Position numbers and translations under genes: made by a program. This document shows positions 14,767 to 50,966 of a stretch of 64,000 nt of DNA, in pieces. This DNA is from a virus. The notes beneath the pieces are model-generated. The model did not search any database, had not been told where the DNA came from, and worked only from the letters and a program-made list of their open reading frames with translations. The stretch covers positions 1 through 64,000 of the IMG/VR virus record IMGVR_UViG_3300035188_001035; one strand, 5' to 3'. Numbering within the stretch: the stretch's first letter is position 1; the number at the start of each line of letters is the position of its first letter.

Positions 14767-14790
14767 TCCACTATTCGCAAAGGGTAAACA

Positions 14791-25930: not shown

Positions 25931-26090
25931 AGTTGCGGTTGGAGAAAAATTTATTCACAATAATCAGGAGTATATTAAGACTCCAGAAATGAGGGTCAGT
26001 TGCTGCAAGATCAAAGATAACTGTCAGATTCTTACCACAGGACAAAAGGCAGTACTAAAACCGTTGGATGAAGTAGAAAAAGTACAATAA
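25917..26090 (+). CDS. Small hypothetical protein (57 aa)
   Basis: AAGGAG RBS before the ATG at 25917; MKFHEVAVGEKFIHNNQEYIK. Confidence 0.6.
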   Translation: MKFHEVAVGEKFIHNNQEYIKTPEMRVSCCKIKDNCQILTTGQKAVLKPLDEVEKVQ

Positions 26091-26092
26091 AT

Positions 26093-28831: not shown

Positions 28832-28861
28832 TTGACATAATATATATGTGATCTATATAAT
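28832..28861 (+). promoter_or_regulatory. Possible sigma70 promoter for the glycosyltransferase operon
   Basis: TTGACA at 28832 and TATAAT at 28856 (18 nt spacer). Confidence 0.45.
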
Positions 28862-30520: not shown

Positions 30521-31623
30521 ATAATATACTATATATAGGACCATATAGAGAATTTACTGGAATAGGTAATGCATCTAGAAAATATATACAGGCTTTATGC
30601 GACGCTGGATTCAATATTGTCTGTCGCCCACTATTCAATACTATAAAACCTATTATAGAACAAGAATTAGAAGATATTATTATTCGTTGTGAAAAGAATA
30701 ATTTAGACAATTATGATACAATAATTCAACATGCATATCCACACCAGTTTTGTCATATCAATGGCTATAAAAATATAGGTATAGTTTCTTTAGATAAAAC
30801 TCATTATGGATACGATATTTATGAATATCTGAATATCGTGGATGAAATTTGGGTTGGTTCAACACACGCTAGAGAAGAACTTATTAATGGCAACATAGAT
30901 ATTGATAAAATAAAAGTTGTGCCAGAATTTATAGATTTATCAATTATAGATGATTATAAACAGAAAAATATAAAACAATCTAAAAAAAACAAGTTTATGT
31001 TTTATACCATATCAGATTTTACTAATAAAAAAAATCTACAAACTTTGATTCTAGCATTCTTTATTATTGCTATAGAATTTCCAGATACTGGACTACTGAT
31101 TAAAACTAAAAATACAAATAATGATAGTAGTAACTTAACATCTTTATTGACCTATGAAATAGATAAAATAATAGATTCATTACCTTTTAAGATCGATAAA
31201 AATATAACATACCCAACACTTATAGTAGGGGAAACTAAATATGATAATATACTATATATACATAATAATTGCGATTGTTATATAGATATATCGTCCGGAG
31301 AAAGTTTTGGATATCCAGTATTAGAGGCTATGTGTTTTAATAATCAGATTATAGTGAATAAGAATTCTGGTTCTTCAGATATAGTTAAGGGTACAAAATT
31401 CTATGGAGTAGAATCAACCCCTAAAAATGCTCACGATAATAGTCATCCATATTGGATATATAATTCTTTTCATCATAAATATTATGTTCCGGAACTTGAT
31501 AGTTTGGTTATGCAAATGAAGCGAGCTTTAAGTGAGTCTCTTTCAGAAAAGTCTGAGCGAATAGAATCACAAAACCATAAAGTCCTAAGCTATTCTATCA
31601 ATAATATTAAAGGGTTTATATGA
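30517..31623 (+). CDS. GT-B (GT4-like) glycosyltransferase
   Basis: TGIGNASR.YI, KKNL..LI, CDCYI..S.GESFG.P.LEAM. Confidence 0.82.
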   Translation: MNNILYIGPYREFTGIGNASRKYIQALCDAGFNIVCRPLFNTIKPIIEQELEDIIIRCEKNNLDNYDTIIQHAYPHQFCHINGYKNIGIVSLDKTHYGYDIYEYLNIVDEIWVGSTHAREELINGNIDIDKIKVVPEFIDLSIIDDYKQKNIKQSKKNKFMFYTISDFTNKKNLQTLILAFFIIAIEFPDTGLLIKTKNTNNDSSNLTSLLTYEIDKIIDSLPFKIDKNITYPTLIVGETKYDNILYIHNNCDCYIDISSGESFGYPVLEAMCFNNQIIVNKNSGSSDIVKGTKFYGVESTPKNAHDNSHPYWIYNSFHHKYYVPELDSLVMQMKRALSESLSEKSERIESQNHKVLSYSINNIKGFI

Positions 31624-34988: not shown

Positions 34989-35318
34989 ATGAAACTAATC
35001 TATAAAGCTAATGAAAAACTACAATTTGAACTTGAAGCCGAAGGTCAAAAAGAAATATTCAAAGAACTTGCAGTAATCCAGGAAATATTTAGCGAAGATA
35101 AATGCGCATTATGCAACAAAGGTAATATTAAATTTGTTGTAAGAAATGTTGATGGTAATGATTATTATGAATTAAGATGTCAGGACTGTGGAGGCATTTT
35201 ATCTTTTGGTCAACATAAAAAGGGTGGAACATTATTTCCAAAACGCAAGGACGACAATAATGAATATTTGCCGAATAGGGGTTGGCATAAATGGAGCAAA
35301 GAATCTAAGGATAAATAA
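34989..35318 (+). CDS. Zinc-ribbon hypothetical protein
   Basis: CALC...CQDCG; LFPKRK...GW.KW. Confidence 0.6.
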
Positions 35319-38300
35319 TGTCTCCTGTTTATGTATCGTGTGATGGTAGAATATCACTAACACAACACGGTGTAACAACAGATGAAAACTGTTGTGGCGG
35401 ATGCTGTTCATACATTTCCGCAAATATAGACTATGTAAAAAATGGTCTGCCAACTAGCCCACCATCGTACACTAATTGTATCCCTGATGGTCCATCAAAA
35501 CCAGTTGTTATAAACGAAAATCCACCAGCAGGTATTTGTGCGCTACATGGTCTTCCTGGAAGTGATGGTACTTTTTCGCCCGGTTGTGATTGTGATTTTG
35601 CAAATAGAACCGATTGTTGTGCTTTCTATTGCGATGTTTGCAATGGATCCGCAATTGGTTGTGATTTTCCTCCTGAGTGTTTCGCGGAATGGACACCTCA
35701 TGAGTATTGCTATTTGACCAATCCGGTATATCCAGAACAAATATATAATATGGAGCAATATGCATTAGCTTGGGCTCAAAATGCTGATTTTACAATTATT
35801 GACAGATTGAGTGGTGCTCTAAATGAATTAAAAACTTGTTTGGAAGATATGGGTTATCAAAACGTAACAGCCAATGCTGGTCTAAGTTATATGCCAGGAA
35901 CCGACGAACATGGTCATTTTGCTCCTATTGTCGTAGATAACCAGCCTTGGGTTCCTGTGGACGAAACTGGACATACACATAATGAATACTTTTCTCAACA
36001 AAGATTAGAAGAAGAATATGGATGGGTATTTTATAATGGATATAATCCTGGAGGATGTGTACCTGATGGAGAGTGTCATCCAGATATGCAAGCTGCTTGT
36101 GGTGGGCCGTGTGGCGGCAATGGTCCGTGTATAAGTCCGGTTATTGTAGACCCGATTAGTAATTTGACGTGTCCTCCTCTGATAGTTGATTATGATAACT
36201 GTACACAATATTGCGAAAAACAAGACTGTTGTGTGTCTTTAGAACCTATTAGGATAACAGGAAATCTTTCTGCTAGTTGTTGTGATAATTGTGGGCGTCT
36301 TGGTAAGGCCAAATGCTGTACAGCATCCAGCGTTATATTTTCTCAACAGGATTTGGAAACTTTGAGTATTGGTACATCGGCCGGTAGAGGAGGAAAATGT
36401 GGAATTAATGGATGTTCTCCGGCAGTATCAGGAATAAGTGAATGTGATACGTTAGGTAATGGAATTTTAAATATGTGGTTCGAACCACTATACGAAGGAT
36501 CAAATGAGTATAATCTTAAAATACTAGCCAGAGAATGTGCGGGATCAAATACTTGTGTAATTGGTCCATTAAGAGCTTATGAATCAGGATGGAATGAAAG
36601 TACACAAAATTATAATAAGCCTATAGATACTTGTGATTATTCTTTTGAAAATCAAGAAGCTTGTGAATGTGGCTATAGAGTTAAAAAATTATGTGTTTCT
36701 ACAATCCAAAGAACTTTTAAATTTAATCTTAATACTAGACACGTTGAGTCTGTTTTTGATGGATTTATAGCGATATATGCTCCCAATAATCCTAGATGGA
36801 TGGTTCCAGATCCTCCAACAACACCTTTTGAACAAGATCTTTATAATAGTATATATACAAATTATTGTGTTGATAAATATTTATGGCCTTCTTGTTTACC
36901 AGAGGATTATGGGATTGGAAATGATGGTTTTTATGTCAGAAAAAGATGCATAGAGAGTGGTCCGCGGCCGTACAATGAAGATGTTATTACTCCTGGCAAT
37001 TTCGTTTCTGAATCAGAATCAGTTGATCCATCCTATCCATTTGCAGGTTATGCTTTATGGCATTTTAGAAATGACTTGGTTCCTGGATGGGAATTATTTG
37101 AGGTAGACGGACCAGATTCTCCAAGAACACAAGGTCTTGCTAGTACACGATCTGCAATAATGAGAGAAACGGTATATGGTCCTCCAGACGAAAGTGCCGC
37201 AACAACAAAATATTACTATACTGCATTTACAAGAAGAGGACTTCCCGATTGGGTGGTATTTACTGTTGGACAAGTAACAAATACAGATTGGACATATGGA
37301 GGTTTAACTACTGCTTGGCCCCTGGGTTCTGCTATATCGAATCATTATGCTGCTATGTGGGGTACTGCACCGGTCTGTGATGATATTGATAATCAATTAC
37401 TGTTCGGTGATGGTGTTTGTGCTGGTAGATTTAAAGAATATTACTATCAATGGACAGTTTCAGAACAATTTCCTAATCAAGAATCGTCTTGCTCGCCAGT
37501 ACTAACAAAAGACAATGAAATGAAAAACTGGGGCTGTGGAGTAATGATAGGCGATGAGTTTATGCAAAATGGAGCTTGTGAAACAGGTATTCAAATTGTT
37601 GATTTTGCTAACGAACTCGAATGGTTGAATGTAATGAACAATTTTAGACCAGTTCCCCCATGGAATATTGAATTATTATTGGGTACTGATGCTGTGGAAT
37701 ATACTTGTGGATCAGAGTGGGGGGTATGGAATGATCCTGAGTGTGTAGTTGTATATGATGAGGAACCAACATGCGATCCTACTCCAACACCAGCACCAAC
37801 ATCAACAGAAACTCCAGTAGCATTTACTCCTACTCCGGGACCTACTGAACCATGTCCAACACCAGAACCTACTCGTCATTGTGAATCGTTATCTCATGAG
37901 TTTGATAGTAATCAATGTCCAACTCCGAGTCCATCAGCTACTCCAACACCAACACCAACTGAAACTCCTACTCCGACACCTACTCCCACTGAGACTCCTA
38001 CTCCAACGCCGTCGCCAACACCAAGTCCAACGCCATCGCCAACACCAAGTCCGACTCCAAGTCCTACTCCGAGTCCAACGCCGTCGCCAACACCGAGTCC
38101 GACTCCAAGTCCTACTCCGAGTCCAACGCCGTCGCCAACACCTAGCCCGACACCATCGCCAACACCGAGTCCAACGCCATCGCCAACACCAAGTCCGACT
38201 CCAAGTCCGACTCCAAGTCCGACTCCATCACCCACGCCAAGTCCTACTCCATCGCCAACACCAAGTCCGACTCCAAGTCCTACTCCGAGTCCAACGCCGT

Positions 38301-38506
38301 CGCCAACACCAAGTCCGACTCCAAGTCCTACTCCGAGTCCAACGCCGTCGCCAACACCTAGCCCGACACCATCGCCAACACCGAGTCCAACGCCATCGCC
38401 AACACCTAGCCCGACACCATCGCCAACACCGAGTCCAACACCAAGCCCAACGCCGTCGCCAACACCAAGCCCGACTCCGAGTCCAACGCCATCGCCCACT
38501 CCTTAA
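35318..38506 (+). CDS. Cys-rich protein with a C-terminal mucin-like (PTPS)n tail
   Basis: About 860 aa Cys/Gly/Pro-rich body followed by about 195 aa of almost pure P/T/S. Confidence 0.8.
37919..38503 (+). repeat. 12-nt-unit tandem array encoding (PTPS)n, array 1
   Basis: About 40 PTPS units with higher-order DNA repeats. Confidence 0.95.
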
Positions 38507-38528
38507 GTTATAATAAGAGAATAATATT

Positions 38529-39155
38529 ATGGAACCTATTAAAATTATCAATATAGAATGCGTAAGTAGTAATGCTCCGTGTTATACTATCACTATATCA
38601 GCTGCTAATTTTATTCCTGGATATTATATTGAGACTAGTTTAGACAATGGAGGAACATGGACAACACAACAATTATTAACATCTTCAATAACTACTACCG
38701 ATATATGTTTCGAAGAACCACTAGAATCTGCTGTCTTGATCAGATTAGCATATGTAGGATGTATGGAAACTATACCTCCAACGCCAACACCATCACCAAC
38801 ACCAACAGAAACTCCAACACCTACCCCGACACCTACTCCCACTGAGACTCCTACTCCAACGCCGTCACCAACACCGAGTCCGACACCTAGTCCAACGCCA
38901 AGTCCTACTCCATCGCCAACACCAAGTCCGACTCCAAGTCCGACTCCATCACCCACGCCAAGTCCGACTCCATCACCCACGCCAAGTCCTACTCCATCGC
39001 CAACACCAAGTCCGACTCCAAGTCCTACTCCGAGTCCAACGCCGTCGCCAACACCTAGCCCGACACCATCGCCAACTCCTAGTCCAACGCCGTCGCCAAC
39101 ACCGAGTCCAATGCCATCACCAACACCGAATCCGACGCCGTCACCAACCCCATAA
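38529..39155 (+). CDS. Small beta-domain protein with a C-terminal (PTPS)n tail
   Basis: About 80 aa domain containing SLDNGGTW (Asp-box-like), then about 125 aa P/T/S. Confidence 0.75.
38775..39152 (+). repeat. (PTPS)n array 2
   Basis: Shares a 98 bp identical stretch with array 1 (38958-39055 = 38213-38310). Confidence 0.95.
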
Positions 39156-39194
39156 TTACTATATCTCTATATAATCAAAGGACTTAAATTCATT

Positions 39195-40454
39195 ATGGAA
39201 ACAATATTTATTCAAATAGCATCATACAGGGATCCTGAATTAGTACCAACTATTAATGATCTGATAGATAAAGCAGCAAATCCTAACAATCTAAGATTCG
39301 GCATAGCGTGGCAAAATAATAAAAAAAATGATGCTTGGGATAATATAGATTTATTTAAAAATGATAAACGATTTAGAATTATAGATATAGATTATAAACA
39401 ATCTCAGGGAGTATGTTGGGCCAGAAATAAAGTACAACAGTTATATAATAATGAAAAGTATACACTACAAATAGATAGTCATCATAGGTTTATAAAAGAT
39501 TGGGACATTTTATTGATAGACATGGTCAAAAATTTGCAAAATGATGGTTATAACAAACCATTGATCACCACATACTTGCCTAGTTATAATCCAAAAAATG
39601 ACCCAAGTGATAGAGTTATGGTTCCTTGGAAAATGAATTTTGATAGATTCATACCAGAAGGGGCCGTTTTCTTTTTACCAGCACCATTTGACAATAATGA
39701 TGATATTACTAAACCTATACCATCCAGATTTTATAGCGCACACTTTGCGTTTACATTAGGTGATTTTGTTAAAGAAGTACAACACGACCCTAATTATTAT
39801 TTTCATGGTGAAGAAATAAGTATAGCAGTAAGAGCATTTACACACGGATATGATCTTTTTCATCCTAATATTGTTGTGGCTTGGCACGAATATACTAGAA
39901 AAGACAGAACCAAACAGTGGGATGATGATAAAACTTGGCATGTAAGAAACCAATTAAGCCATTTAAGAAATAGAAAATTATTTGGAATGGATAATGAAAA
40001 ACAAGATATTGATTTTGAAAAATATGGTTTTGGCAATATTAGAAGTTTAACAGATTATGAGAAGTATAGTGGGCTATCGTTTAAATCAAGATCCATTACA
40101 GATGATGTGATTTATCATAAAAATCCTAATTTGAATAATATAGATATTCCTGATAAAGATTTTCAAGAATCATTACAACACATTTTTAAATATTGTATAA
40201 ATTTACCATCAGATAAAATTAATGAAAATGATTATGATTTTTGGGTGGTTGCTTTTCATGATGCTGAAGATAGAACAGTATATAGAAAAGATAGTGATAA
40301 AGAAGAAATAAAAAATACAGTTTCTAACGGGCGACCGACCTTCTATAATATATGGAGAGAATTTCATGTTTCCGAAATGCCAAAAAAATGGGTGGTATGG
40401 CCGCACTCACTATCTAAAGGCTGGTGCGAAAAAATAGAAGGTTCAATAATATGA
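39195..40454 (+). CDS. GT60-like polypeptide/Skp1 alpha-GlcNAc transferase
   Basis: IFIQIASYRDPEL..TI, G.CWAR, LQIDSH.RF...WD, F.GEEI....R.FT.GYD. Confidence 0.8.
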   Translation: METIFIQIASYRDPELVPTINDLIDKAANPNNLRFGIAWQNNKKNDAWDNIDLFKNDKRFRIIDIDYKQSQGVCWARNKVQQLYNNEKYTLQIDSHHRFIKDWDILLIDMVKNLQNDGYNKPLITTYLPSYNPKNDPSDRVMVPWKMNFDRFIPEGAVFFLPAPFDNNDDITKPIPSRFYSAHFAFTLGDFVKEVQHDPNYYFHGEEISIAVRAFTHGYDLFHPNIVVAWHEYTRKDRTKQWDDDKTWHVRNQLSHLRNRKLFGMDNEKQDIDFEKYGFGNIRSLTDYEKYSGLSFKSRSITDDVIYHKNPNLNNIDIPDKDFQESLQHIFKYCINLPSDKINENDYDFWVVAFHDAEDRTVYRKDSDKEEIKNTVSNGRPTFYNIWREFHVSEMPKKWVVWPHSLSKGWCEKIEGSII

Positions 40455-41281
40455 AAAGGGCATTGGTTGGTTTTGTAACAAATATTACAGCTAATTATTC
40501 AAAAATAAAAATATGGACTAATAGCTTTAAAAAACATTGTAAAAATGATGCAATATATCTTATTGCAGCAAATGCATCAAATGAAGAAATAGACTTATTA
40601 ATAAAACTAGATATTAATATTCATAATATTATTATTGATGATAATGATTTACAATTTATCAACCATAAAAGACTTTACTATACATATGATCTTTTGTCTA
40701 AAATTGATATAGAATATATATTAGTTACTGATGTTTTTGATGTTATTTTTCAAAATGATCCATTTAAAAAATTAGACTTTAATAAATTTGATTTGTTTCT
40801 AACTTTAGAAGGAGTGTTGGTGAGTGAAGAACCTTGGAATTCTGATGTAATAAACAAAATTTTTCCAGAATACTATCAGTTATGTAGAAATCGAGATGTA
40901 ATTTGTAGCGGCATTATAGCAGGAAAACGAGACCATCTAATTAATTTATTATCTAGCATGTATAATTTGTGTGAAAACTGTTCAAATAATCATAATATAA
41001 AAGATCAGGCCGCACTTATAGTTTTGGATACTATCAAACGTATTGATGCACATATTAAATATCTATCATTAAAGGATGGTTGGGTCGTGAATTGTGCCGT
41101 TGCTGGGCCAACCAATTTTTTTGAATCTTGGGGATTTAAGAATACTATTGAAAAAAGATACCTAGATATACCAGTATTAAGAAATAATAATATATATATT
41201 GGTGATTTACAATATGATATAGTACATCAATTTAATCGTATTTCTGAATGGAATAAGGAGTTAATAAAAGATTATGAGTAA
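40451..41281 (+). CDS. GT-A fold glycosyltransferase-like protein
   Basis: ILVTDVFDVIFQNDPF, CSG.IAG, DQA, IVHQF. Confidence 0.65.
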   Translation: MKRALVGFVTNITANYSKIKIWTNSFKKHCKNDAIYLIAANASNEEIDLLIKLDINIHNIIIDDNDLQFINHKRLYYTYDLLSKIDIEYILVTDVFDVIFQNDPFKKLDFNKFDLFLTLEGVLVSEEPWNSDVINKIFPEYYQLCRNRDVICSGIIAGKRDHLINLLSSMYNLCENCSNNHNIKDQAALIVLDTIKRIDAHIKYLSLKDGWVVNCAVAGPTNFFESWGFKNTIEKRYLDIPVLRNNNIYIGDLQYDIVHQFNRISEWNKELIKDYE

Positions 41282-42026
41282 TGCAATATGCATGTGTACA
41301 ACATCAGAGACATACTCCCAAAATTTAATAGATTGGAAAAAGAATTTTATTGATGAGAACACCTATTTGATTGTAGATAAAACTAAAAATAGTAATTTTA
41401 ATTCTAATGATTTTATATATACAGAATCTGATATTAGAAAAAATCTTAATTTTAATCATGATGTTAGCAAAAAGCACTACTGGAATAGCTATGGCAACAG
41501 AAATATTATCTGGTTTTATGCGCATTTTAGAATGATTAATTTCTATTTAACCCATAATGATTTTGACTATTATTGGTTTTTTGACGATGATGTATATATG
41601 GATAATTGGCAAAAATTTATTGATACTACAAATAATTATGATTATGATTTTATGTCATATTTTTGTTTTAAAAAGAATAATGTAAAATCTACAGAAAATA
41701 TACCATATATCGATCACAACACAACTTCTGGACAACTGTGGTTTGAAAGATTTCCTGGTCATAATGACATACTACCAAAAACAAATGAATATTTTGGGTC
41801 TTTTTTTCCAACGGTCAGGTACTCTAATAAAGCGATGAGAAAATTGATTGAAATTAATAGTTTAGGATATTTTGGTTATTCTGAGGGTTTTGTTCCAACA
41901 GTATTAAATATGTATAATTTTTCACTCAAATCTATTATCAATCCTGATAATTCATCAGATATGTTCGATATTAACGATATAAATATTTTACATAAAAATA
42001 TAAGGATTACATGGCAATGGATATAA
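41274..42026 (+). CDS. GT-A fold glycosyltransferase-like protein
   Basis: FDYYWFFDDDVY (DxD), FFP.VRYS, EGFVPT. Confidence 0.6.
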   Translation: MSNAICMCTTSETYSQNLIDWKKNFIDENTYLIVDKTKNSNFNSNDFIYTESDIRKNLNFNHDVSKKHYWNSYGNRNIIWFYAHFRMINFYLTHNDFDYYWFFDDDVYMDNWQKFIDTTNNYDYDFMSYFCFKKNNVKSTENIPYIDHNTTSGQLWFERFPGHNDILPKTNEYFGSFFPTVRYSNKAMRKLIEINSLGYFGYSEGFVPTVLNMYNFSLKSIINPDNSSDMFDINDINILHKNIRITWQWI

Positions 42027-43387
42027 AAAAGCCAATATTAGTTACAGCTATTTATGATATAGGTAGAGATAATTGGGAATCATATAATCTATCATACAAC
42101 AATTATTTAGCATGGATGCGCAATACTCTCTCATTAGATAGTTATATTGTAATTTATACAGAACGGAAATTTTTGTCTAAAATAGAGGAAATGCGTAAGG
42201 AATTCGATCCTACACTAGATAAAACAGTTATTATAACAACACCAATTGAGGAGTTGGATGCGTATAAACTGTACTATACTAAACTTTGTGATTTAATGTT
42301 CAGTAAAGAATTCAAAGATAAAATACATACTAAAGTTCCAGAGATGACCAAACCCCTATATAATGTCATCATGTTCAATAAAATATTTTTTCTAAAAAAA
42401 GCTAAAGAATTTTTTAATGGAGATTTTTATATTTGGGTAGATGCTGGTGGTCTAAGAGAGAATATATCCAATTATAATAATCAAAGATGGCCATGTTTGA
42501 ATAAAATCAACGAACTAGATAACTCAAAAATAACATTTTTTAGCCATAGTCAAACTATAATGATTAGGAATCAAGATATCGAAAATCATGCGTTGTCTCA
42601 ACAAAGATACATACAAGGAACAGCTTTTTTGATTCCGGTAAATTTGATAGATGAATTATTAGATAATTTTAATCAAACTATTAATGAATCTCTGGAACAT
42701 CAATATATAGGAAGTGACGAAAAAATATTCGATATAACTTATTGCAAAAATAAAACCAAATATAGTTTAATTAAGTGTGATTGGAGGACTTACTTTAATA
42801 TATTCAAAGACGATGGACTAAAACTTTTCGATAAAGACGGAAATAGACCTTCAAAAATATTTCTAGATCTAGGATCTCATCAATTACAAGGATTAAAAAA
42901 ATATATTGATAAATTATATATAGATAATAGCTGGGAAATACATTGTTTTGAACCGAATTCTATGGTTAAAACAGAAGAGTTTATTGAAGCGATTAAAGAA
43001 TTGTCTATTCAATTTCATAAAAAAGCAGTATGGATAAGAAATGGAAGAACTATTTTTAATCAACACGGAGAAAAAGGAGAAGGGCAAGGTTCTTTATTGG
43101 AAGAAACTGAAGGTGGAAAAGCGTATGGAGATTTTTATGCAGAAGAGGTAGTGGACTGTGTTGATTTGCTAGACTTTATAAAAAAATTAGATCCTAAAAA
43201 AGATATTTATATCAAAATGGATATAGAATGGTCAGAATATAAAGTTCTTAATAAATTATTATCTGATTGGCCTAAAAATATCAAAAAGATATGGATTGAA
43301 TGGCATGGATCTAATAGCAATAAAGAGAATATAAAGACTCTAGAGGATGCTATTAAAAATTTAGGAACAGATCTAGAGGTAATTTAA
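42011..43387 (+). CDS. HtrL/YibB-like glycosyltransferase fused to an FkbM-family methyltransferase
   Basis: N-terminal LVTA.YDIGR..W, K..F...A, WVDAG. C-terminal FLDLG.H..G, CFEPN, KAVW, IKMDIE.SEY. Confidence 0.75.
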   Translation: MAMDIKKPILVTAIYDIGRDNWESYNLSYNNYLAWMRNTLSLDSYIVIYTERKFLSKIEEMRKEFDPTLDKTVIITTPIEELDAYKLYYTKLCDLMFSKEFKDKIHTKVPEMTKPLYNVIMFNKIFFLKKAKEFFNGDFYIWVDAGGLRENISNYNNQRWPCLNKINELDNSKITFFSHSQTIMIRNQDIENHALSQQRYIQGTAFLIPVNLIDELLDNFNQTINESLEHQYIGSDEKIFDITYCKNKTKYSLIKCDWRTYFNIFKDDGLKLFDKDGNRPSKIFLDLGSHQLQGLKKYIDKLYIDNSWEIHCFEPNSMVKTEEFIEAIKELSIQFHKKAVWIRNGRTIFNQHGEKGEGQGSLLEETEGGKAYGDFYAEEVVDCVDLLDFIKKLDPKKDIYIKMDIEWSEYKVLNKLLSDWPKNIKKIWIEWHGSNSNKENIKTLEDAIKNLGTDLEVI

Positions 43388-43392
43388 TCAAT

Positions 43393-44103
43393 CTATTTTT
43401 GTGCATATTCTGATCTAGGATATCTTTTAGTATAGTGATCTATCTTTGAATGATGCATACAATACGGATTTGCAAAACCTTTATTTAAAGCGTTCAAAAG
43501 CCAAAACTCTCCAAAAATTCTAAATTCGATAGGCTGTAGTTGAGAATCTTTTCTTATATAACAACCATATACATCATTAAAACTTCTAATTTTTTTAATA
43601 TAAGAATTTGATGCCCACCAAAAATTACCAGAAAAATGTGGATGTTTATGACCGTCTTGTATAGACTGAAGATTAACTCCACAAGCATCATAATTTTTTA
43701 AATATTTTGTTGATTCGTCCCATAATTCTATCAAGAAATATTCCATTAAGTCTATCCAATCCTGTATATTATCTTTTTCATTTTCTTTTGAGTGTGCTCT
43801 CCACACTCCTTTACTATGTAAATATAAAATATTATCTTCGTCTGAAAATTCCTTACATTTATTCCATAAAAAATCTAATGTGTGTCCTTCCGTACTTTCA
43901 TTATTTGAATTAAATGATAGATGAATTTTATTATCGTCTTTTAGAAGTGAAATGATAGAATCATCAATATGTTTACCTATCATATTAATATATATTGTAT
44001 TAATAGAATCATAAAGTCCATAATTTTTAATTTTATGCATGGTTTTTTGGAATCTATCAAAGTAGTCATTTATACAAAACATATGATAAAAGATATAGTT
44101 CAT
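43393..44103 (-). CDS. Glycosyltransferase-like conserved viral protein
   Basis: E..TL, ILYLHSKG, W...M.YF, HFSGNFWWA...YI motif set seen in viral glyco-clusters. Confidence 0.55.
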   Translation of the reverse strand: MNYIFYHMFCINDYFDRFQKTMHKIKNYGLYDSINTIYINMIGKHIDDSIISLLKDDNKIHLSFNSNNESTEGHTLDFLWNKCKEFSDEDNILYLHSKGVWRAHSKENEKDNIQDWIDLMEYFLIELWDESTKYLKNYDACGVNLQSIQDGHKHPHFSGNFWWASNSYIKKIRSFNDVYGCYIRKDSQLQPIEFRIFGEFWLLNALNKGFANPYCMHHSKIDHYTKRYPRSEYAQK

Positions 44104-44112
44104 AATATAGTT

Positions 44113-44790
44113 TTAGTTTTTAAAAAAGTTGTACGCTAAATAATCTTCTATCTCATTCTGATTTCCTATATCGAAATGATGATCTCCTAATCTACCATCA
44201 TCGATTCTATTATATTTTTTAACTTGAAATTCTTCCCTAGTTTTAGAATAATAGTGATTTAATTGAGCAATATCTGTTGGTACATCTAGATAAGGACAAT
44301 TAGGGCGATGAACTTGCATACTAGGGGTGTTTTTATCGATTCTTACTATAGATTTTCCAATAATATCAGGATTAATACCTCTTTTTGTAAATCTTTGTAA
44401 AACACTATAATTATTATTTTCAACTTTATCCAAACCATTATTACCAAAATAAAACCATCTAAAACAAAACGCAGCATATTCTTTATAGTTTTTTAAAAAA
44501 TCTTTTATATTTTTATGATTTTTTAGAACTAAAAATTCATCAATATCAAAAAAAGCAGCATATTCATATTCTGATTTATAATCGTCAATAAATTTATTAT
44601 AACTATAAATTTGTCTATCTCCTCTATCTTCATCAAATTCTATTTTAATTAAATTAGGATGATTAAATTTTGTGCGCCAATTATTTTGATAAAGAAATAT
44701 ATTATCGAATCCTAATTTAATATGATATTCTACCCATTCTTGAATATAATAATCTTCATTTTTAGCTATACAAACACACGCTGTTTTCAT
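44113..44790 (-). CDS. GT2-like/GT92-like glycosyltransferase
   Basis: CIAKNE..YI.EWV.YH...GFD, FFDIDEF, LNHY..K..EEF. Likely start MKTACV at 44790. Confidence 0.8.
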   Translation of the reverse strand: MKTACVCIAKNEDYYIQEWVEYHIKLGFDNIFLYQNNWRTKFNHPNLIKIEFDEDRGDRQIYSYNKFIDDYKSEYEYAAFFDIDEFLVLKNHKNIKDFLKNYKEYAAFCFRWFYFGNNGLDKVENNNYSVLQRFTKRGINPDIIGKSIVRIDKNTPSMQVHRPNCPYLDVPTDIAQLNHYYSKTREEFQVKKYNRIDDGRLGDHHFDIGNQNEIEDYLAYNFFKN

Positions 44791-44792
44791 AT

Positions 44793-45449
44793 TTATTTGC
44801 ACCAGTTTGTTGATCTGTTTCCACTCATGTACGATTCGTACTCTCCAGGCATCAACTGATTTTTCCAATCTTTGTACCAAGGAAGATGTTTAGAAGTATA
44901 TGGTCCAGCTAATCTTATATATGGCCAATTAGTTGTATAGTTATTATTAATCAAACAAAAAGTGGTATCTATATCAGCCCAATACATTTCTATCTCTTCA
45001 TGTATGACCTTATTTTGCCAAAATTTACTTTCCCATTGTTTTATAGTTTGATTTTCATATTTAACATCTTCTCGCAGATTATCACCAGAAATATCTAAAG
45101 CAACCCCTACTTTTCTAATTTTATATTTTTCAGAAGTTTCATACATTATTTGTATTGTTTTTTTATCTACAGCATCAGATATTTCAATATCAGGATCTGT
45201 CAATAGGAAAATGGGTCCAACTATTTTTTTAATTGATTCTAATTCATACACCCTATGTCCATGATTCTCCGATAGTCTAATAATGTTTAGTTTAGAATTA
45301 TCCAAAAAATTTACCATTGGACCGTATGTACTATTATTATCAACAATGAATATATTATTAGTTATATTAATAAGTCTTTCACAAATTTTTTTAACATATG
45401 TATAATTATTATATGCTATAATTAAGCATGGTATGTTTTCTGTATTCAT
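44793..45449 (-). CDS. GT2-like glycosyltransferase
   Basis: IIAYNN, IVDNNSTY.P, LTDPDI (DxD), IDTTF, HLPWY. Confidence 0.7.
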   Translation of the reverse strand: MNTENIPCLIIAYNNYTYVKKICERLINITNNIFIVDNNSTYGPMVNFLDNSKLNIIRLSENHGHRVYELESIKKIVGPIFLLTDPDIEISDAVDKKTIQIMYETSEKYKIRKVGVALDISGDNLREDVKYENQTIKQWESKFWQNKVIHEEIEMYWADIDTTFCLINNNYTTNWPYIRLAGPYTSKHLPWYKDWKNQLMPGEYESYMSGNRSTNWCK

Positions 45450-45997
45450 ATTAATTCTTCATTAAAATTTAGAATAGTTGGCCATAAATATTCTACCATA
45501 TAATTGGTCTCGTTTTTGACTTCATATGTAGGTAATAAGCTTTTGATTTTTTCATACTGATCAATATCTCTTTTTTTTATTAAATTTCTAGAAACAATAC
45601 ATTGAGCTGAATTAATAAACTTTATTGGTAATTTATAAGCAATATCGTGTTTTTTACATAAATTTATTGTTCTATCAAGAACTTCGCCACCTCTTTCGTA
45701 TACTCTTCCCAATGGTACAAATTCTTTATCGAAGTTAAAATTATTAACAATATTTAAAAAAGAGGCACAGTGGAAAAAAGGATTATCTTGACTAAAACAA
45801 ACATAATCTGGTAAATCATAATAATTATCTATTATATAACTTAAATAAGCTATAGTGTCAAAACCTACATTTGGTAAATCAATGTGGTATTTTCCATTAT
45901 TAATAGGATTTTTATTATAAACAATGTATTCATGTTTTAATTCATTTATCCATGTAAGATTTTGTTCATAATGACAGATGATAATTTTCATTTTCAT
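45446..45997 (-). CDS. DUF3431-like (glycosyltransferase-associated) protein
   Basis: Y.Q.L.W, LPNVG, YL.YIIDNY..LPD...F.Q.NPF.H, Q..VSR..I, E..W. Confidence 0.65.
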   Translation of the reverse strand: MKMKIIICHYEQNLTWINELKHEYIVYNKNPINNGKYHIDLPNVGFDTIAYLSYIIDNYYDLPDYVCFSQDNPFFHCASFLNIVNNFNFDKEFVPLGRVYERGGEVLDRTINLCKKHDIAYKLPIKFINSAQCIVSRNLIKKRDIDQYEKIKSLLPTYEVKNETNYMVEYLWPTILNFNEELI

Positions 45998-46021
45998 ATT
46001 ATTATACCTATATTGTGATGA

Positions 46022-47035
46022 TTATATAATAGGGGTCTCGGTTGGTGTCGGGCTTGGCGTTGGAGTCGGAGATGGTGTTGGGCTAGGCGTCGGACTCGGT
46101 GTTGGTGACGGCGTTGGACTTGGAGTCGGGCTTGGTGTTGGTGATGGCGTTGGACTTGGAGTCGGGCTTGGTGTTGGTGATGGCGTTGGACTTGGAGTCG
46201 GGCTTGGTGTTGGTGATGGCGTTGGACTTGGAGTCGGGCTTGGCGTTGGAGTCGGAGATGGTGTTGGGCTAGGCGTAGGACTCGGTGTCGGCGATGGCGT
46301 TGGACTTGGCGTTGGAGTCTCGGTCGGTGTTGGACTTGGAGTAGGACTCGGCGTCGGGCTAGGCATTGGAGACGGTGTTGGACAATTAAGGCTATTGAAA
46401 AACTCCATATTAGAATAACAAGCAATAGTTGGCGTTGGTGTAGGAGTAGGAGTTGGTGGAGGTAATGTTGGTGTACACGCAATTGTAACACAAGGAGTTG
46501 GTGTAGGATTATACAAATGACACGCAACATCTATCCAAATTAATCCACCTTTTTCGCAACAGTTAGATTCTTCTGAAAATCCTTCATACTGAGTATGACC
46601 GAGGAACTGAATAGTCCCGCAATACTGCGAATTATAATTTGGTATTTGTTCTATAGGCATACTAAAATATCTATAATTACAATCAGTATCTAGGGTTGGT
46701 GGCATAATAGCCCCGGAACATAAGCTTAGAGACTCCCAATACATTCCTCGGCCAGATCCATGCACCAAAACCTGAGGAACTCCCTCACTAAAATTTGGTA
46801 TTTGTTTTATATCGTGGTTGAAAAATCGTTGACAAGATTGTGCTCCACCAAGAGTTCCAGAACTACAAGCATCTTCTGTTTCACCATTAATACTCATCCA
46901 TCTTAAACCATCAGCAGTATCATAGGAATGAGTTAATATTTGCTCTTTATTAGCGTTGAATCCTGATAATTGTTCCATAGGTACATTGAAATACCTGTGA
47001 ATTCTACACCACTTTGGGTCTTGATATGCACACAT
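46022..47035 (-). CDS. Cys-containing protein with a C-terminal (PTPS)n tail
   Basis: About 190 aa body with two F.(V/M)P(M/I)EQ repeats, then about 120 aa P/T/S. Confidence 0.78.
46031..46381 (-). repeat. (PTPS)n array 3, inverted relative to arrays 1 and 2
   Basis: Includes about 3.7 perfect copies of a 36 bp unit (46110-46243). Confidence 0.95.
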
Positions 47036-47054: not shown

Positions 47055-50000
47055 CTAAGGTGGTCCACCATCATCTAAACATTCTTCAGTAGTACTAAAA
47101 AGTGGTGGAGATCCTGTTCCTATAATCATATACGTTCCACCAGGACAATCACTAGCGCTTTCATCACCACCCAAACTTGAATCGCATATCAGATACATTG
47201 TTACCAAATCACCAGCTGCTGCTCCGTAACCCAAAGGATTTCTTACGTCATTTATTAACGTTGATCCCAATATACACTCTGAAGACATTGAATGATCAAC
47301 ATTAACTGATATTCCGGATGCGGTGTTAGAAGTAAAGTCATTATCTGCTGTACCAGTTACCAATAATGGTGCACTAGATACGTGCTCCATGATAATGTAT
47401 TCATTATTTTCATGAAGTTTGGCATATATTTTACTGCCTTTATAATAAGTCTTACCTAGATAGTCTTTAACATTAATAAAATTACAACCAGATCCAGCTA
47501 ATTTAGCTTCTCCACTGCACATAGGATCAATACGTTCTGTTAATTGAGCGATAACAATTTTATTAGAGTCTCCTCCTGCTACCCATACTCCTCTTTTTCT
47601 ATCAAACCTTAGATCTATAGGAGCAACTGGCCAAGTTCGTGGATTAGCGAGCCAATTATCCATAAATTTATCAGCTAATCCTGAGTTATTAAAAATGCCC
47701 TTTTCAGTATCTATTTGAATATCTGTAGAATTTGGTATAGGTTTACCATCAGTATCATAACCCCAAGCTTGTAAAACTAGTGGGCCTCTTAGAGCACAAA
47801 ATCCGAAATCATCATGATCGTCGTATCTGTCAGGATCGTGAGAAGATTTAATATCAGCAATATCTTCACCAAATGAAAGCATTAAAATATTAGTACTATC
47901 AGATTCTCCTCTAGAATCCCATTCTTCTAATAACTTCTTAGATAAAATAGGATTTAAATATTTTTGATTAATAGGTAAGCCTTTTGATCCACTATTCTTT
48001 TTATTTGTTGATGAATTTTCATCATCTTGATCCCAGCTTTGAAAATAAGGACTCAGTCTATATTTTCTGCCCTTGATCGATACTGGAGAAATTAAACCAT
48101 CTAATGACATTAATGCCATATTATATACGGCATCTCCTGTGACTGCACTTTCTACTTCTTTTAGAGTATTAAGTCCCATTTCATAATTTTTACGCGTTGT
48201 TGATGATGAACTATCTTCTTCCGAAGTATCTTCTTCTTCTTCTTCTTCTGGTTGTTGTTCTTCTTCGCATTGATCAAACGATGAATCACATATACCGTCT
48301 AAGTTTATAGCAATGCTTGGAGTGCATTCATTATTTGGAGTTGGTGTTGGTGTAGGAGTTGGTTCGTTATTTTCTTCGCCACCGCCTCCTCCATTATCTT
48401 CTTCTTCTAAGATAGCATCATAATATCCACCAATTAATAAGGACGATGGAGAAGCCGAAACATTTGGCGAAGCAACTCGACTTAAAATTTCTTGTATACC
48501 TAAATCTTTTAACCTTTGTGCGATAGCTTTTCTAGTTTCTGCCACCATAATAAGTGAATTTTTTCTTTGTGTTCTAATAATATCTAGTATTCTATTTCTT
48601 TCTTTATTTGCTTTCTGAACCTCATCAGACAAAGCCTTGGCGTATTGACCAAATTTTGCTGAGTATACCTGAAATGAATAATCTGAAGTAACACCGCCCT
48701 CATTATAATTTACATTAATACTCTTGATTGTAGCTATTGTATTACGAAAAACCCCTATACTGTAAGCTGGTGGTTCAGCAAGTGTTACACTACCGCTCTC
48801 TGTTTTATTGGTAAATCTAAGACCAGCATTGGACAAAGCTGTTCCCACAGTATTCATACCAGCATAATCACCATAGGCCCACGGACTCAAATCGGTTTTT
48901 ACAATTTCTGTTGAGCCTATTTGTCCTTGACTACCAACCCAAGGACCATAAACATAAATATTACTTTTCATAGGTATATTAACAGCATAATACATTGCTG
49001 CTGCATTTTCTAGTTTAAAAATATTGATAGCTGTTTTTCTAGTTGCTCCCTTAATTCCTTGTTGATGATTCGATATAAAATCTGTTACATTTTGTGCCAT
49101 ACCGAGCATAGCGGCTAAAGCTCTTAAACCTTGTGTTTTAATTCTATTATCCGCATTAACTGTTAGTCCTAAAAAGGGTGTTTGTATAACCACATCATTA
49201 GTATTGGTTTGAGGATTATTATAAACTTGTCCTGTGGTAGTTAATGATCCATAGATCATATTATTAGTTGGTTGATATACATAATTATTATCAGAAAAAT
49301 CTTTAGATATGATAAAGTCAATATCAAATGCCCCAATCCGTCTTTTTCTACTTCCGGCGGCTGAAATCATACCAAATCCATTAACTTTACCATCTTGAGT
49401 AATAAATAAAGAAGGATCAATTAATCCCATTCTATTAGCTGGTGTTCCGTATCCAGCCTCTACGGGAACATCTGATAATGATACTGAAGTATTATCTGAT
49501 GCCATACCACCGTATAAACCATATGGAGCATGAGCACATATTGTATTAACAGGCACAAGCCAGTATCTACCGTACCATGTTTTAATAAATTGTTGGAACC
49601 ATGCATATGCTCTTTCATATAAAACAACATTTACAGCAGCAGAGAACGCGGTGGATATCCCGGAGATATCGTCCATAGCTCTTGCGAAACCGTTCACATT
49701 TCCATTGTTAGCAAAACCTTGCAAAGCATTAAACGCATCTAAAACACGACGTAAATTGACTTGTCCCAATCCTAATAAATTAATAAGAGTTCCGGACAAG
49801 CTTTGTTTATTATTTTCATTACATATTATACCATATAATTTCCACATTTCCGAACTACCAGTAAAGAGTATTTCTTCTTCGGAAATGGTAAACATAGGAG
49901 GAAATCCATTAATAATAGCGGCTATAGGACTAGTATTAATAGGAACTGTAAAATTAATACCATCAACCTGTATAGGAAATCCTGTGAGATCGTATCCTAA

Positions 50001-50966
50001 CATCATCCGAGCTTTTGTTTCTGTAACAACATTGGCTAAATAATGAACTTGTTCACCAATAACAAATTTATTACTATTCGCATAAATTTCTTCGAATCCG
50101 CGTTCTCCCTTTGTGCAAATACCAGAGGAGAATCCAGCAGATATAATATCTTTTATTGGATTATCATTTGTTGGTATAATAGTTCTATCTATTAGATTAA
50201 TAAATATAGTATATCTTTGGAGTGTAACATAAAAATCACAACCACAAGCATCACATGCCTCACTAATTAAATTTAATAAATTACTTTCAGAATTAGATGT
50301 TCTAGCATATGGTGCTCTAAATAATAATGTATTAATCAACAATTGAAAGTTTAACGATAATCTATATTGTCCATTAGTTGTCACTATACCAGTATTATAT
50401 TGTTGTATAGCGCGTAAAGCATCAACTAGATAAACCTGGTTATCACCAGATGATCTTCCCCAATTGTTACAATTATTAACTCGTGGCCAATTGTGGGTAT
50501 CTTCTCCCGGAGGACACAGTGCAACATCTTTGTGCATCCAAGCGCAAACATTCATAAAGTTATAATTATCTAATGATGGTACTGGACAATAATATCCTTT
50601 TAATAAAACAGATACATACTCTAACATTTTTCTAGGATCAATAACTTGTACCTTATATCTTAATCCATTACTACTTAAACTTTCTGTAGCTGATGTTAGT
50701 ATTCCACCAAAAGATAATCCAGGAGTAGAAGATCCTTGATTAGCATAAACATTAAATAAAACTGGTGTTCCTACTTCTGCTATTTGACCCGCTCCTTGAC
50801 CAGCACAAGGATCAACAACCAATTCCATATCCAAAGTTGATGATGCCGCACCTATGCCTAATACTAGACTAAAATTACTTAGCCATAAATTACTGGATAC
50901 AACTTGTCCACCAGATGGTGTTGTAAATGTAAATAGGGCGCTCCTAGAATCACATTTCGTTGGCAT
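47055..50966 (-). CDS. Large tail/baseplate hub-like virion protein
   Basis: 1303 aa, downstream of the tape measure gene. N-terminal STLDMELV.D...V.DPR hub-like region, acidic/PT linker, RGPLVL.AWGYD.DG and DLRFDRKRGVW motifs. Confidence 0.55.
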   Translation of the reverse strand: MPTKCDSRSALFTFTTPSGGQVVSSNLWLSNFSLVLGIGAASSTLDMELVVDPCAGQGAGQIAEVGTPVLFNVYANQGSSTPGLSFGGILTSATESLSSNGLRYKVQVIDPRKMLEYVSVLLKGYYCPVPSLDNYNFMNVCAWMHKDVALCPPGEDTHNWPRVNNCNNWGRSSGDNQVYLVDALRAIQQYNTGIVTTNGQYRLSLNFQLLINTLLFRAPYARTSNSESNLLNLISEACDACGCDFYVTLQRYTIFINLIDRTIIPTNDNPIKDIISAGFSSGICTKGERGFEEIYANSNKFVIGEQVHYLANVVTETKARMMLGYDLTGFPIQVDGINFTVPINTSPIAAIINGFPPMFTISEEEILFTGSSEMWKLYGIICNENNKQSLSGTLINLLGLGQVNLRRVLDAFNALQGFANNGNVNGFARAMDDISGISTAFSAAVNVVLYERAYAWFQQFIKTWYGRYWLVPVNTICAHAPYGLYGGMASDNTSVSLSDVPVEAGYGTPANRMGLIDPSLFITQDGKVNGFGMISAAGSRKRRIGAFDIDFIISKDFSDNNYVYQPTNNMIYGSLTTTGQVYNNPQTNTNDVVIQTPFLGLTVNADNRIKTQGLRALAAMLGMAQNVTDFISNHQQGIKGATRKTAINIFKLENAAAMYYAVNIPMKSNIYVYGPWVGSQGQIGSTEIVKTDLSPWAYGDYAGMNTVGTALSNAGLRFTNKTESGSVTLAEPPAYSIGVFRNTIATIKSINVNYNEGGVTSDYSFQVYSAKFGQYAKALSDEVQKANKERNRILDIIRTQRKNSLIMVAETRKAIAQRLKDLGIQEILSRVASPNVSASPSSLLIGGYYDAILEEEDNGGGGGEENNEPTPTPTPTPNNECTPSIAINLDGICDSSFDQCEEEQQPEEEEEEDTSEEDSSSSTTRKNYEMGLNTLKEVESAVTGDAVYNMALMSLDGLISPVSIKGRKYRLSPYFQSWDQDDENSSTNKKNSGSKGLPINQKYLNPILSKKLLEEWDSRGESDSTNILMLSFGEDIADIKSSHDPDRYDDHDDFGFCALRGPLVLQAWGYDTDGKPIPNSTDIQIDTEKGIFNNSGLADKFMDNWLANPRTWPVAPIDLRFDRKRGVWVAGGDSNKIVIAQLTERIDPMCSGEAKLAGSGCNFINVKDYLGKTYYKGSKIYAKLHENNEYIIMEHVSSAPLLVTGTADNDFTSNTASGISVNVDHSMSSECILGSTLINDVRNPLGYGAAAGDLVTMYLICDSSLGGDESASDCPGGTYMIIGTGSPPLFSTTEECLDDGGPP

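Follow-up and report, generated by a model that had tools for sequence, protein, structure and literature searches.

A GT60-family glycosyltransferase gene beside genes for Pro-Thr/Ser-tailed proteins in a phage contig: a candidate module for mucin-type protein O-glycosylation

Could a phage bring along its own mucin-type O-glycosylation, enzyme and acceptor protein alike? This question is raised by the IMG/VR virus record IMGVR_UViG_3300035188_001035, a contig of 92,962 bp (CheckV completeness 64%; estimated size of the complete genome ~145 kb), whose first 64 kb were analysed here and are referred to as the window. Three genes of the window, for proteins PT1, PT2 and PT3 that end in long tails of alternating Pro and Thr/Ser, bracket a cassette of glyco-enzyme-like genes, among them gene 39195, which encodes a glycosyltransferase (GT) of family GT60. 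We consider it rather probable that these genes constitute a phage-encoded, cytoplasmic module for mucin-type protein O-glycosylation that modifies the Pro-Thr/Ser tracts; the acceptor, the sugar, the order of the steps, the location in the virion and the biological role are what we infer from the comparisons given below.

The GT60 enzyme and its candidate acceptors

Is the product of gene 39195 a GT60 enzyme, and on what would it act? The genes in question are (aa, amino acids; nt, nucleotides; HexNAc, N-acetylhexosamine):

39195..40454, + strand: soluble GT60-family (PF11397) glycosyltransferase, on sequence and structural model the proposed initiating polypeptide O-HexNAc transferase
35318-38506, + strand: PT1, 1062 aa, proposed acceptor; tail aa 869-1062 (nt ~37922-38503)
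38529-39155, + strand: PT2, 208 aa, proposed acceptor; tail aa 83-208 (nt ~38775-39152)
46022-47035, - strand: PT3, 337 aa, proposed acceptor and tail appendage; tail aa 206-337 (nt ~46025-46420)

The match of 39195 to PF11397 scores 259.7 bits (E 6.9e-77; cut-off 21 bits) and covers model positions 1-53 and 96-351 of 352; the glycosyltransferase family phrog_24687 is matched with E 6e-166. In 14 homologues with 33-63% identity to 39195, D94 and H96 of the DSH motif and the downstream H231 are invariant and S95 is nearly so. The AlphaFold2 model has a mean pLDDT (predicted local distance difference test) of 90.9, and its top PDB matches in Foldseek are exclusively polypeptide N-acetylgalactosaminyltransferases (ppGalNAc-Ts) of family GT27. 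After VIA realignment the 29 best PDB entries are all ppGalNAc-Ts, with Z scores of 19.4-23.0 over 261-313 residues and a root mean square deviation of 3.2-4.9 Å (3.9 Å or less in 28 of the 29); they include human T1, T2, T4, T7, T10 and T12, fly PGANT9 and Toxoplasma T3, and generic GT-A enzymes follow at Z of 16.9 or less. PDB searches with the sequence of 39195 and with its profile gave no true match. The GT27-like catalytic domain spans aa 1 to ~300, and an extra conserved, beta-rich C-terminal domain (~aa 328-417) lies beyond the Pfam model. A ricin-like lectin domain is found in GT27 but not in GT60 enzymes and separates the two families; a Pfam match to such a domain is missing in 39195, and some of the structural alignments extend into the lectin region of GalNAc-T1, T7, T12 and TgT3. 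Judged by profile and predicted structure, 39195 is a true member of PF11397/GT60 with a GT-A fold and a DxH metal-binding motif. The first-pass annotation, made from the letters alone, had called it GT60-like, and the profile search and structure prediction run here bear this out. The family is large (more than 7,480 protein clusters at 90% identity) and, to our knowledge, no phage or bacterial member has been characterised biochemically. In GenBank phages, protein comparison found a GT60 homologue (45-47% identity) in just four jumbo phages of Xanthomonas and Stenotrophomonas, and megablast with the plus-strand arm of the cassette gave no match.

The same annotation had reported three genes with Pro/Thr/Ser tails, two on the plus and one on the minus strand, and these were recovered. 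The (P-[T/S])n tails comprise 194 aa in PT1 (94 P, 54 T and 43 S), 126 aa in PT2 and 132 aa in PT3. Every second tract residue is Pro, and Thr and Ser together amount to 97, 60 and 59 residues, respectively, ~216 in total. No other gene on the entire contig encodes a Pro/Thr tract. In the underlying DNA, Tandem Repeats Finder gave matches of just 61-85%, at periods most of which are multiples of 12 nt, and tract Ser codons are of both kinds, AGY and TCN. The peptide repeat is thus near perfect while the DNA repeat is not, which is easier to reconcile with selection on the peptide than with simple slippage. The mixed codons for one and the same peptide repeat also account for the fact that plus- and minus-strand arrays are only 70-77% complementary, for which reason a role of the arrays as anchors for recombination or inversion was rejected.

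Apart from the tails, the three proteins differ. PT1 has an 860-aa Cys-rich N-terminal part (55 Cys), followed by short Pro/Thr stretches, a C-x11-C-PTPSP module and the tail. PT3 has a Cys-containing N-terminal part of ~175 aa, again short Pro/Thr stretches, the module and the tail. PT2, directly upstream of the GT60 gene, consists of an N-terminal domain of ~80 aa and its tail; this layout, with a short N-terminal domain and a tract from about residue 60-80 on, is shared by many of the tract proteins that other phages encode upstream of GT60. The C-x11-C-PTPSP module lies right before the main tract in the otherwise unrelated PT1 (aa 855-872, 37880-37935) and PT3 (aa 206-223, 46365-46420) and is missing in PT2; it might form a disulfide loop or serve the transferase as a docking element. 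The N-terminal domains of the three proteins have no Pfam or PHROG match, and the PT2 domain has no PHROG family. Residues 1-860 of PT1 found zero relatives in 5.8 billion clusters and 1.84 billion representatives, and a homologue search with residues 1-200 of PT3 found none either. Neither PT1 nor any protein of the cassette has a signal peptide or transmembrane (TM) segment, so that any chemistry would take place in the cytoplasm.

Tract genes beside GT60 genes in viruses and bacteria

If the tracts are acceptors of the GT60 enzyme, the two kinds of genes should travel together, an expectation that had been voiced in the first-pass annotation. To count as a tract, a run had to be at least 30 aa long, with P≥4, T+S≥8 and P+T+S≥15 in its 24-aa windows. 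We inspected 81 viral loci, i.e. the window and the best 80 of 179 IMG/VR GT60 relatives (57-63% identity, from one pattern scan), with genes called by a simple longest-open-reading-frame (ORF) heuristic. A tract gene is present directly upstream of GT60 (rank -1) in 63 of the 81 loci, in line with this expectation. Farther upstream the numbers fall, from 38/67 at rank -2 and 30/58 at -3 to 20/55 at -4, 16/48 at -5 and 6/42 at -6; none was found at ranks -7 to -12 (0/162) or downstream at ranks +1 to +4 (0/315).

How often did this arrangement arise? A quick IQ-TREE search with 61 distinct GT60 sequences placed 49 of them in one clade (clade A), in which all members with enough upstream DNA have tracts. 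The window and the loci L004, L006 and L003/L068 are separate deep branches, all with tract genes. The linkage is thus found in at least five GT60 lineages (clade A, L004, L006, L003 and the window), and their tract proteins share no globular domain. The genomic backbones differ as well, since clade A has a family B DNA polymerase and the window a split DnaE.

The tracts themselves are diverse. The operon of clade A encodes a tract protein with an N-terminal domain of ~640 aa, a collagen-like tail fibre, three short tract proteins, GT60 and GT25, followed by a gene of no assigned function and an HtrL protein. Clade A tracts are linkers between small Cys-bearing domains; those of the window are free C-terminal tails. 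In other lineages the tracts are Thr-dominated and Pro-poor, e.g. PTNTQT, with 42-48% T and ~20% P. Ten tract proteins of other loci had no Pfam or PHROG match except for a sub-threshold, knottin-like one in L004. The protein concerned (8533-9954, +), encoded upstream of GT60, has four small Cys-rich modules between Pro/Thr/Ala linkers, and the Cys-rich module matches the knottin-type Pfam family Toxin_7 with 21.9 bits at a cut-off of 27.

The reverse search started from the tracts. In 80 viral loci chosen solely by a (P[T/S])8 DNA pattern (740 kb), 70 encode a true tract and four have a GT60 homologue (25-37% identity), two to about eleven genes from the tract gene. As a control, 80 loci (1.12 Mb) were chosen by the family of gene 43393, the last gene of the minus-strand arm; none has a GT60 gene and four have a short tract ORF.

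Species-representative bacterial genomes contain 290 GT60-like stretches, in Bacteroidota, Burkholderiaceae, Verrucomicrobiota and others. Tract ORFs peak at rank -1 of GT60 in bacteria, too (10/57), and a tract was present within the locus in 16 of the 45 bacteria-only clusters formed at 70% identity, a number that naive ORF calling in high-GC genomes may inflate. In Jiulongibacter sediminis (L315, 1.3-Mb contig, 7948-15145) and in a Saprospiraceae metagenome-assembled genome (MAG; L305, 230-kb contig, 8513-11251), GT60 is divergent from a tract protein whose N-terminus contains RR in a Tat (twin-arginine translocation)-like motif. This layout would suggest cytoplasmic glycosylation and then export of the folded protein. 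Judged by their N-terminal sequences, carbamoyltransferase-like and FkbM-type genes follow GT60 in the Jiulongibacter locus, and the Xanthomonas phage XacN1 has an annotated carbamoyl transferase at the equivalent position. Another Saprospiraceae MAG (L317, 3.0-Mb contig, 2316-21218) has a prophage-like locus with a 673-aa tract protein directly upstream of GT60; the protein carries the 'GYYSDG' domain that is typical of clade A phage tract proteins, which hints that clade A-type phages infect Saprospiraceae or other Bacteroidota. Taken together, and as far as gene order tells, the linkage of GT60 with Pro/Thr-tract genes is strong and recurrent in phages and less frequent in bacteria.

Several findings count against glycosylation of the tracts, two on the virion being given further below. 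Homology by itself cannot fix the acceptor of a glycosyltransferase. As a single clade supplies most of the 81 loci, these are less independent than the raw counts make them appear. A jumbo-phage clade of six sequences and locus L071 have no tract within 10 kb of GT60; in two of three jumbo contigs without an adjacent tract the strict DNA pattern (P[T/S])4 occurs elsewhere (22 and 69 matches, on the coding strand; control pattern 0), and in the third it was not found at all. Tracts also exist without a nearby GT60, as 76 of the 80 loci of the reverse set have none in the DNA that was fetched. Finally, 29 of the 45 bacteria-only clusters have no tract nearby, and some bacterial GT60 genes lie among sugar-nucleotide and carbamoyltransferase genes, which suggests polysaccharide work.

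The strongest alternative is the following: the acceptor would not be a protein at all but a host envelope polysaccharide, lipopolysaccharide, teichoic acid or the phage DNA, the tracts would be plain, unglycosylated linkers and tails, and both kinds of genes would merely share a variable region beside the tail-fibre genes. The GT-A fold does not settle the acceptor, and the lower-ranked structural neighbours of 39195 include polysaccharide and teichoic-acid enzymes such as RmlT, GlfT2, K4CP and TarP; the 29 closest structures, however, are all polypeptide transferases and well apart from the rest. Bacterial GT60-like genes often have no tract neighbour and are found beside genes that, by their N-terminal sequences, resemble UDP-glucose dehydrogenase, epimerase and carbamoyltransferase. 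In the phage, the cassette is devoid of membrane segments and the Pfam matches listed include no flippase or polymerase. Modification of DNA could be seen in the dCMP deaminase and the dNMP kinase of the phage and in a weak match (E 3.9e-4) of one clade A HtrL-domain protein to the PHROG of T4-type DNA glucosyltransferases; against this, a thymidylate-synthase-like hydroxymethylase (PF00303) is missing on the contig, which is 64% complete. A shared variable region explains poorly why tract genes are confined to ranks -1 to -6 and absent from +1 to +4 and -7 to -12, why unrelated tract proteins, different backbones and GT60s of just 25-37% identity all show the linkage, and why the control loci, which are likewise glyco-gene neighbourhoods, seldom have tracts (4/80). 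We therefore regard a non-protein acceptor as unlikely, albeit the most serious competitor of glycosylated tracts.

The cassette, the tail operon and the virion

What could the other genes of the cassette contribute to a glycosylation of the tracts? Each arm has four genes immediately after its repeat gene or genes, which makes eight tightly packed glyco-genes in total; within each arm neighbouring genes abut or overlap, and the two arms are convergent with ends 5 nt apart. Besides GT60, the cassette and the two GT genes upstream of PT1 comprise:

28916..30520, + strand: GT4a, GT4-family glycosyltransferase (Glycos_transf_1 E 2.4e-10; phrog_2170), first gene after a promoter match
30517..31623, + strand: GT4b, second GT4-family glycosyltransferase (Glycos_transf_1 E 3.1e-10)
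40451..41281, + strand: gene 40424, a GT60 partner gene (phrog_1579 glycosyltransferase, E 1e-4)
41274..42026, + strand: gene 41274, a GT60 partner gene with a DDD motif and leads from the ESM Atlas
42011..43387, + strand: fusion of HtrL_YibB (aa 9-266) and FkbM methyltransferase (aa 301-444), Pfam E 3.8e-19 and 1.1e-5
43393..44103, - strand: PHFSGNFWWA-motif protein, last gene of the minus arm; motif invariant in the family
44113..44790, - strand: GT92/GT2_4-like glycosyltransferase (Glyco_transf_92 E 2e-12; Glyco_tranf_2_4 E 3.5e-11)
44793..45449, - strand: GT2-family glycosyltransferase (Glycos_transf_2 E 4.8e-6)
45446..45997, - strand: DUF3431-like protein, small GT-A-like fold (Pfam DUF3431 E 1.9e-14)

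The first-pass annotation had placed four glyco-enzyme-like genes directly after the repeats on each strand. The order held and five of the genes have Pfam families, including the HtrL-FkbM fusion and the DUF3431-, GT2- and GT92-like genes of the minus arm, all of which had been named; gene 43393 is left without a functional assignment. Genes 40424 and 41274 had been taken for GT-A-like proteins, for which there are weak leads from PHROG and Atlas and no Pfam match. Likewise, the proposal that the substrates are encoded together with initiating, elongating and methyl-capping enzymes stands as far as GT60, the GT-like genes and the FkbM domain are concerned, and is less secure for 40424, 41274 and 43393.

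For gene 40424 the ATG at 40451, which overlaps the GT60 stop codon (ATGA), is the more likely start. Its homologues lie beside GT60 in 9 of 80 loci of several lineages, and the ESM Atlas neighbours of its fold include viral or phage fusions with GT29 (the sialyltransferase family) and with GT60 plus GT7 (796 aa), which are leads of the Rosetta-stone type for a shared pathway. From these weak leads, the gene product is probably a nucleotide-sugar transferase. The homologues of 41274 also co-occur with GT60 in 9/80 loci; the Atlas leads, to DUF3405/DUF707 and the GT14 'Branch' fold at TM scores of 0.64-0.76, make a GT-A enzyme possible. PHROG had no match for 41274 and 43393, and Pfam none for these two and 40424. 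HtrL homologues adjoin GT60 more often, in 23/80 loci, and we propose that the 42011 product adds an elongation step and an O-methyl cap. The model of the DUF3431-like protein (pLDDT 85) gave Foldseek matches that are weak (E 6e-4 to 4e-2) and, with few exceptions, to GT-A enzymes, and its homologues are next to GT60 in L012, L040, L004/5, L050 and L016; in other lineages they are directly downstream of GT60. Altogether, L012, L004/5 and L040 share a set of five adjacent genes, GT60, DUF3431, 40424-like, 41274-like and HtrL, and the jumbo contigs L050 and L016 have all five in a less regular arrangement. The GT92 gene more likely starts at the ATG at 44790. Gene 43393 is a case of its own: its family has 127 viral relatives, giant-virus bins included, no sequence relative in the PDB and no linkage to GT60 elsewhere (0/80 loci of the family). 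The family is invariant in PHFSGNFWWA, H7, E72, T75, Y94-x-H96-x-K98-G99 and E199-x-W201 and is sometimes fused in proteins of 1,300-1,700 aa.

The GT4 pair stands apart from the arms. A sigma-70-like 12/12 match, which is a consensus match only, lies at 28832-28861 ahead of GT4a, and GT4a is kept at 40% identity in the sister phage L003; it may belong to the glycosylation module. The best PDB sequence matches of the pair are 5d00, an N-acetyl-alpha-D-glucosaminyl L-malate synthase, and, for GT4b, 3oy2 (Glycosyltransferase B736L). A role like that of GtfA/GtfB was considered and is unsupported, as these are not among the PDB sequence matches at E ≤ 0.1.

Are the tailed proteins then part of the virion? 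The structural genes that bear on this question are:

47055..50966, - strand: 1303-aa tail-region protein, encoded fifth after the tape measure gene; Pro/Thr tracts are present in its L003/L068 homologue
59693-72301, - strand: tape measure protein, 4,202 aa in a single ORF
81750-82754, - strand: major capsid protein
86983-88995, - strand: large terminase

By Pfam and PHROG, the plus strand encodes a tail-fibre-like protein, ribonucleotide reductase, DnaB helicase and the split DnaE polymerase, and then two GT4 genes, an HNH gene, PT1, PT2 and the plus arm. The minus strand is a single long structural operon with the large terminase at its start. The tape measure gene is followed by genes for five large proteins of 1085, 492, 487, 816 and 1303 aa; PT3 begins 19 nt after the last of these and is the last protein gene of the tail operon before DUF3431, GT2, GT92 and 43393. 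From this order, terminase, tape measure, PT3 and GTs, the tail operon has the minus glyco arm as its distal end. The five tail-region proteins have no Pfam or PHROG match, with the exception of YadA-head and beta-roll ('antifreeze') repeats at ~aa 700-820 of the 1085-aa protein (56418-59675, -) directly after the tape measure gene, which is possibly an adhesin-like tail-tip component.

Help comes from the sister phages. A pattern scan for relatives of the 1303-aa protein found none, and tblastn found them only in L003/L068, where the homologue is encoded in two ORFs of the same frame (523 and 909 aa; 16080-20387, - strand, in L003) with one stop codon between them, which could reflect read-through, recoding or two genes. 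Two Pro/Thr tracts are in the second ORF, which also has a C-terminal domain and is followed by a protein of 229 aa that is all tract. In clade A, tract genes flank the collagen-like tail-fibre gene. XacN1, one of the four GT60-bearing isolates in the phage collection, also has two convergent arms: one is headed by the GT60 homologue ORF334, and the other runs from baseplate wedge genes via ORF325, ORF326 and ORF327 to a GT9 gene. ORF325 (3313 aa), after the baseplate wedge genes, has a 40-aa tract near its C-terminus. Purified XacN1 virions contain at least two glycoprotein bands that are positive in periodic acid-Schiff staining, and the authors suggested the phage's two own GTs, including ORF334, as the source of the glycosylation (PMC5852040). 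The bands have not been matched to named proteins.

From its place as last gene of the tail operon, and because the sister phage has a tract in its homologue of the tail protein, we infer that PT3 is a component of the virion tail. Nothing ties PT1 or PT2 to the virion, since the searches found no relatives for the N-terminal part of PT1, nor for that of PT3, and the PT2 domain has no match among the PHROG families. The bottle-brush appendages on the virion that the first-pass annotation had envisaged thus have positional support for PT3 only. Would the cassette then glycosylate proteins that never enter the virion but are released upon lysis or act within the cell, such as decoys, enzyme carriers or proteins that bind a matrix? 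PT1 and PT2 are encoded on the plus strand after the replication and HNH genes, outside the structural operon, their N-terminal domains have no match to structural proteins, and the bacterial counterparts have RR-containing, export-like N-termini. However, signal peptides are missing in the phage tract proteins, PT3 closes the tail operon, the sister phage has its tract in the homologue of the upstream tail-region protein, the collagen-like fibre gene of clade A lies amid tract genes, and in XacN1, with its Schiff-positive virions, the tract protein gene comes after baseplate wedge genes. Glycosylated proteins without a place in the virion are thus a rather improbable outcome.

Some features of the genome are worth recording. 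With the usual conversion of 0.15 nm tail length per residue, the tape measure protein predicts a tail of ~600 nm, very long for a genome of ~145 kb. The DnaE-type polymerase is split in two ORFs (625 and 534 aa; 24053-28382, +), with an intervening ORF of at least 232 aa (26093-26791). One protein of the window outside the cassette matches the FGE-sulfatase (C-type-lectin-like) Pfam domain (E 1.3e-6). The closest genome matches (52-69% identity) are mostly from Bacteroidota, and these, with the Saprospiraceae prophage-like locus and its clade A-type tract protein, are hints to a host among the Bacteroidota.

A possible pathway and its relation to known systems

How could such a module work? 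Late in infection, three soluble proteins with C-terminal (P-[T/S])n tails would be made, exposing ~216 Thr/Ser hydroxyls. The soluble GT60 enzyme would add the first sugar to tract Thr/Ser, most likely a HexNAc from an abundant UDP-sugar such as UDP-GlcNAc, for which there is precedent in the GT60 family (PMC8724618). The co-transcribed GT-A-like enzymes, i.e. the DUF3431-like protein, the products of 40424 and 41274, the HtrL domain, GT2, GT92 and possibly the two upstream GT4s, would extend the glycan and the FkbM domain would methylate it. The glycosylated proteins would then join the virion, with PT3 at the distal tail as its gene is the last of the tail operon. Since the tracts of the window are C-terminal with nothing after them, they would dangle from the N-terminal domains as anchors and project as stiff, hydrophilic, protease-resistant brushes. 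It is tempting to speculate that they shield or stiffen, or that they adhere to host surface layers or polysaccharide matrices. A sugar on hydroxyproline instead of Thr/Ser, as in Skp1 or plant extensins, would suit tracts that are half Pro, with Pro at every second residue, and a family that includes the Skp1 hydroxyproline GlcNAc-transferase Gnt1, cytoplasmic and soluble like 39195 (PMC8724618), but it is very improbable, as a 2-oxoglutarate-Fe(II) prolyl-hydroxylase domain (PF13640) is missing on the contig and the tracts of other lineages are Thr-dominated and Pro-poor, which makes Thr/Ser the conserved feature.

Beyond this phage, we put forward tentatively, and with more doubt than for the module itself, that phage and bacterial GT60 enzymes are a widespread prokaryotic, cytoplasmic counterpart of mucin-type O-glycosylation, whose initiating step would be homologous to that of GT60/GT27 and possibly tied to their origin, and with which phages would build glycan 'bottle-brush' tails and linkers on the tail tip and other appendages. 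If this is true, many aquatic phages, the GT60 family being very common in environmental phages, would have heavily glycosylated appendages that affect adsorption, stability, resistance to grazing and proteases, and antigenicity, and the enzymes that initiate mucin glycosylation in eukaryotes would gain close relatives among prokaryotes and viruses. PT2, with its 208 aa, and the small, soluble GT60 enzyme would also make a simple system for the production of mucin-like glycoproteins in bacteria.

Which known system comes closest? The GT60 enzymes of Dictyostelium and T. cruzi initiate mucin-type O-glycosylation on Ser/Thr-rich mucin domains (PMC8724618). 39195 shares with the protist enzymes the Pfam family PF11397, with a very strong score, and the DxH motif on a GT-A fold; the candidate acceptors are Ser/Thr-rich and mucin-like as well, and 39195 is soluble like Gnt1. 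It differs in that it is viral and would act in the bacterial cytoplasm and not in the Golgi, has the extra ~90-aa C-terminal beta-rich domain and has its candidate acceptors encoded adjacent to it. The GT27 ppGalNAc-Ts, the closest solved structures, likewise initiate dense O-glycosylation of Pro/Thr/Ser-rich mucin domains, but their sequence identity to 39195 is just 10-15% and 39195 has no TM anchor.

Virus-encoded glycosylation of virions is known from giant viruses and, recently, from mycobacteriophages; a mucin-type initiator with dedicated mucin-like substrates was not found described, and a full-text literature search gave no paper that links GT60/PF11397 to phages or describes mucin-like phage proteins. 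In mycobacteriophages, according to Freeman et al. 2023 as cited in PMC12619734, the phages' own GTs modify structural proteins at C-terminal regions. A feature in common is the position of GT genes in or next to the structural module, as the minus arm continues the tail operon. The mycobacteriophage acceptors are the C-termini of capsid and tail-tube proteins; here, dedicated proteins with repeat tails of 126-194 aa are present, and no Pro/Thr tract occurs in any head or tail-tube ORF at 72-91 kb, the major capsid gene included, so the system is not of the mycobacteriophage type. In the serine-rich-repeat adhesins of Gram-positive bacteria, O-HexNAc initiation takes place in the cytoplasm on long Ser/Thr-rich repeats, by GTs encoded beside the substrate; the initiator is the GT4 pair GtfA/GtfB and export is via SecA2/Y2. 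The likeness is in the proposed cytoplasmic initiation on Ser/Thr-rich repeats and the stepwise extension by substrate-adjacent GTs, and the difference is in the proposed initiator, which is GT60 and not GtfA/GtfB; SecA2/Y2 accessory Sec genes were not found among the 25 of 34 Pfam families listed. Giant viruses, for which PBCV-1 capsid glycans and Mimivirus fibrils are cited in PMC5852040, have their own multi-enzyme machinery for virion glycosylation. With them the phage would have this machinery in common, and the family of gene 43393 occurs in giant-virus bins, too, but they are eukaryotic viruses with other acceptor and linkage types, and a GT60-plus-repeat pairing was not found for them in the searchable literature. 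Particular to the window are the DnaE-type backbone with a 4,202-aa tape measure protein, tails that are free and strictly (PSPT)n, a cassette whose eight genes form two convergent arms, two further GT4 genes lying upstream, and a tract gene that closes the tail operon.

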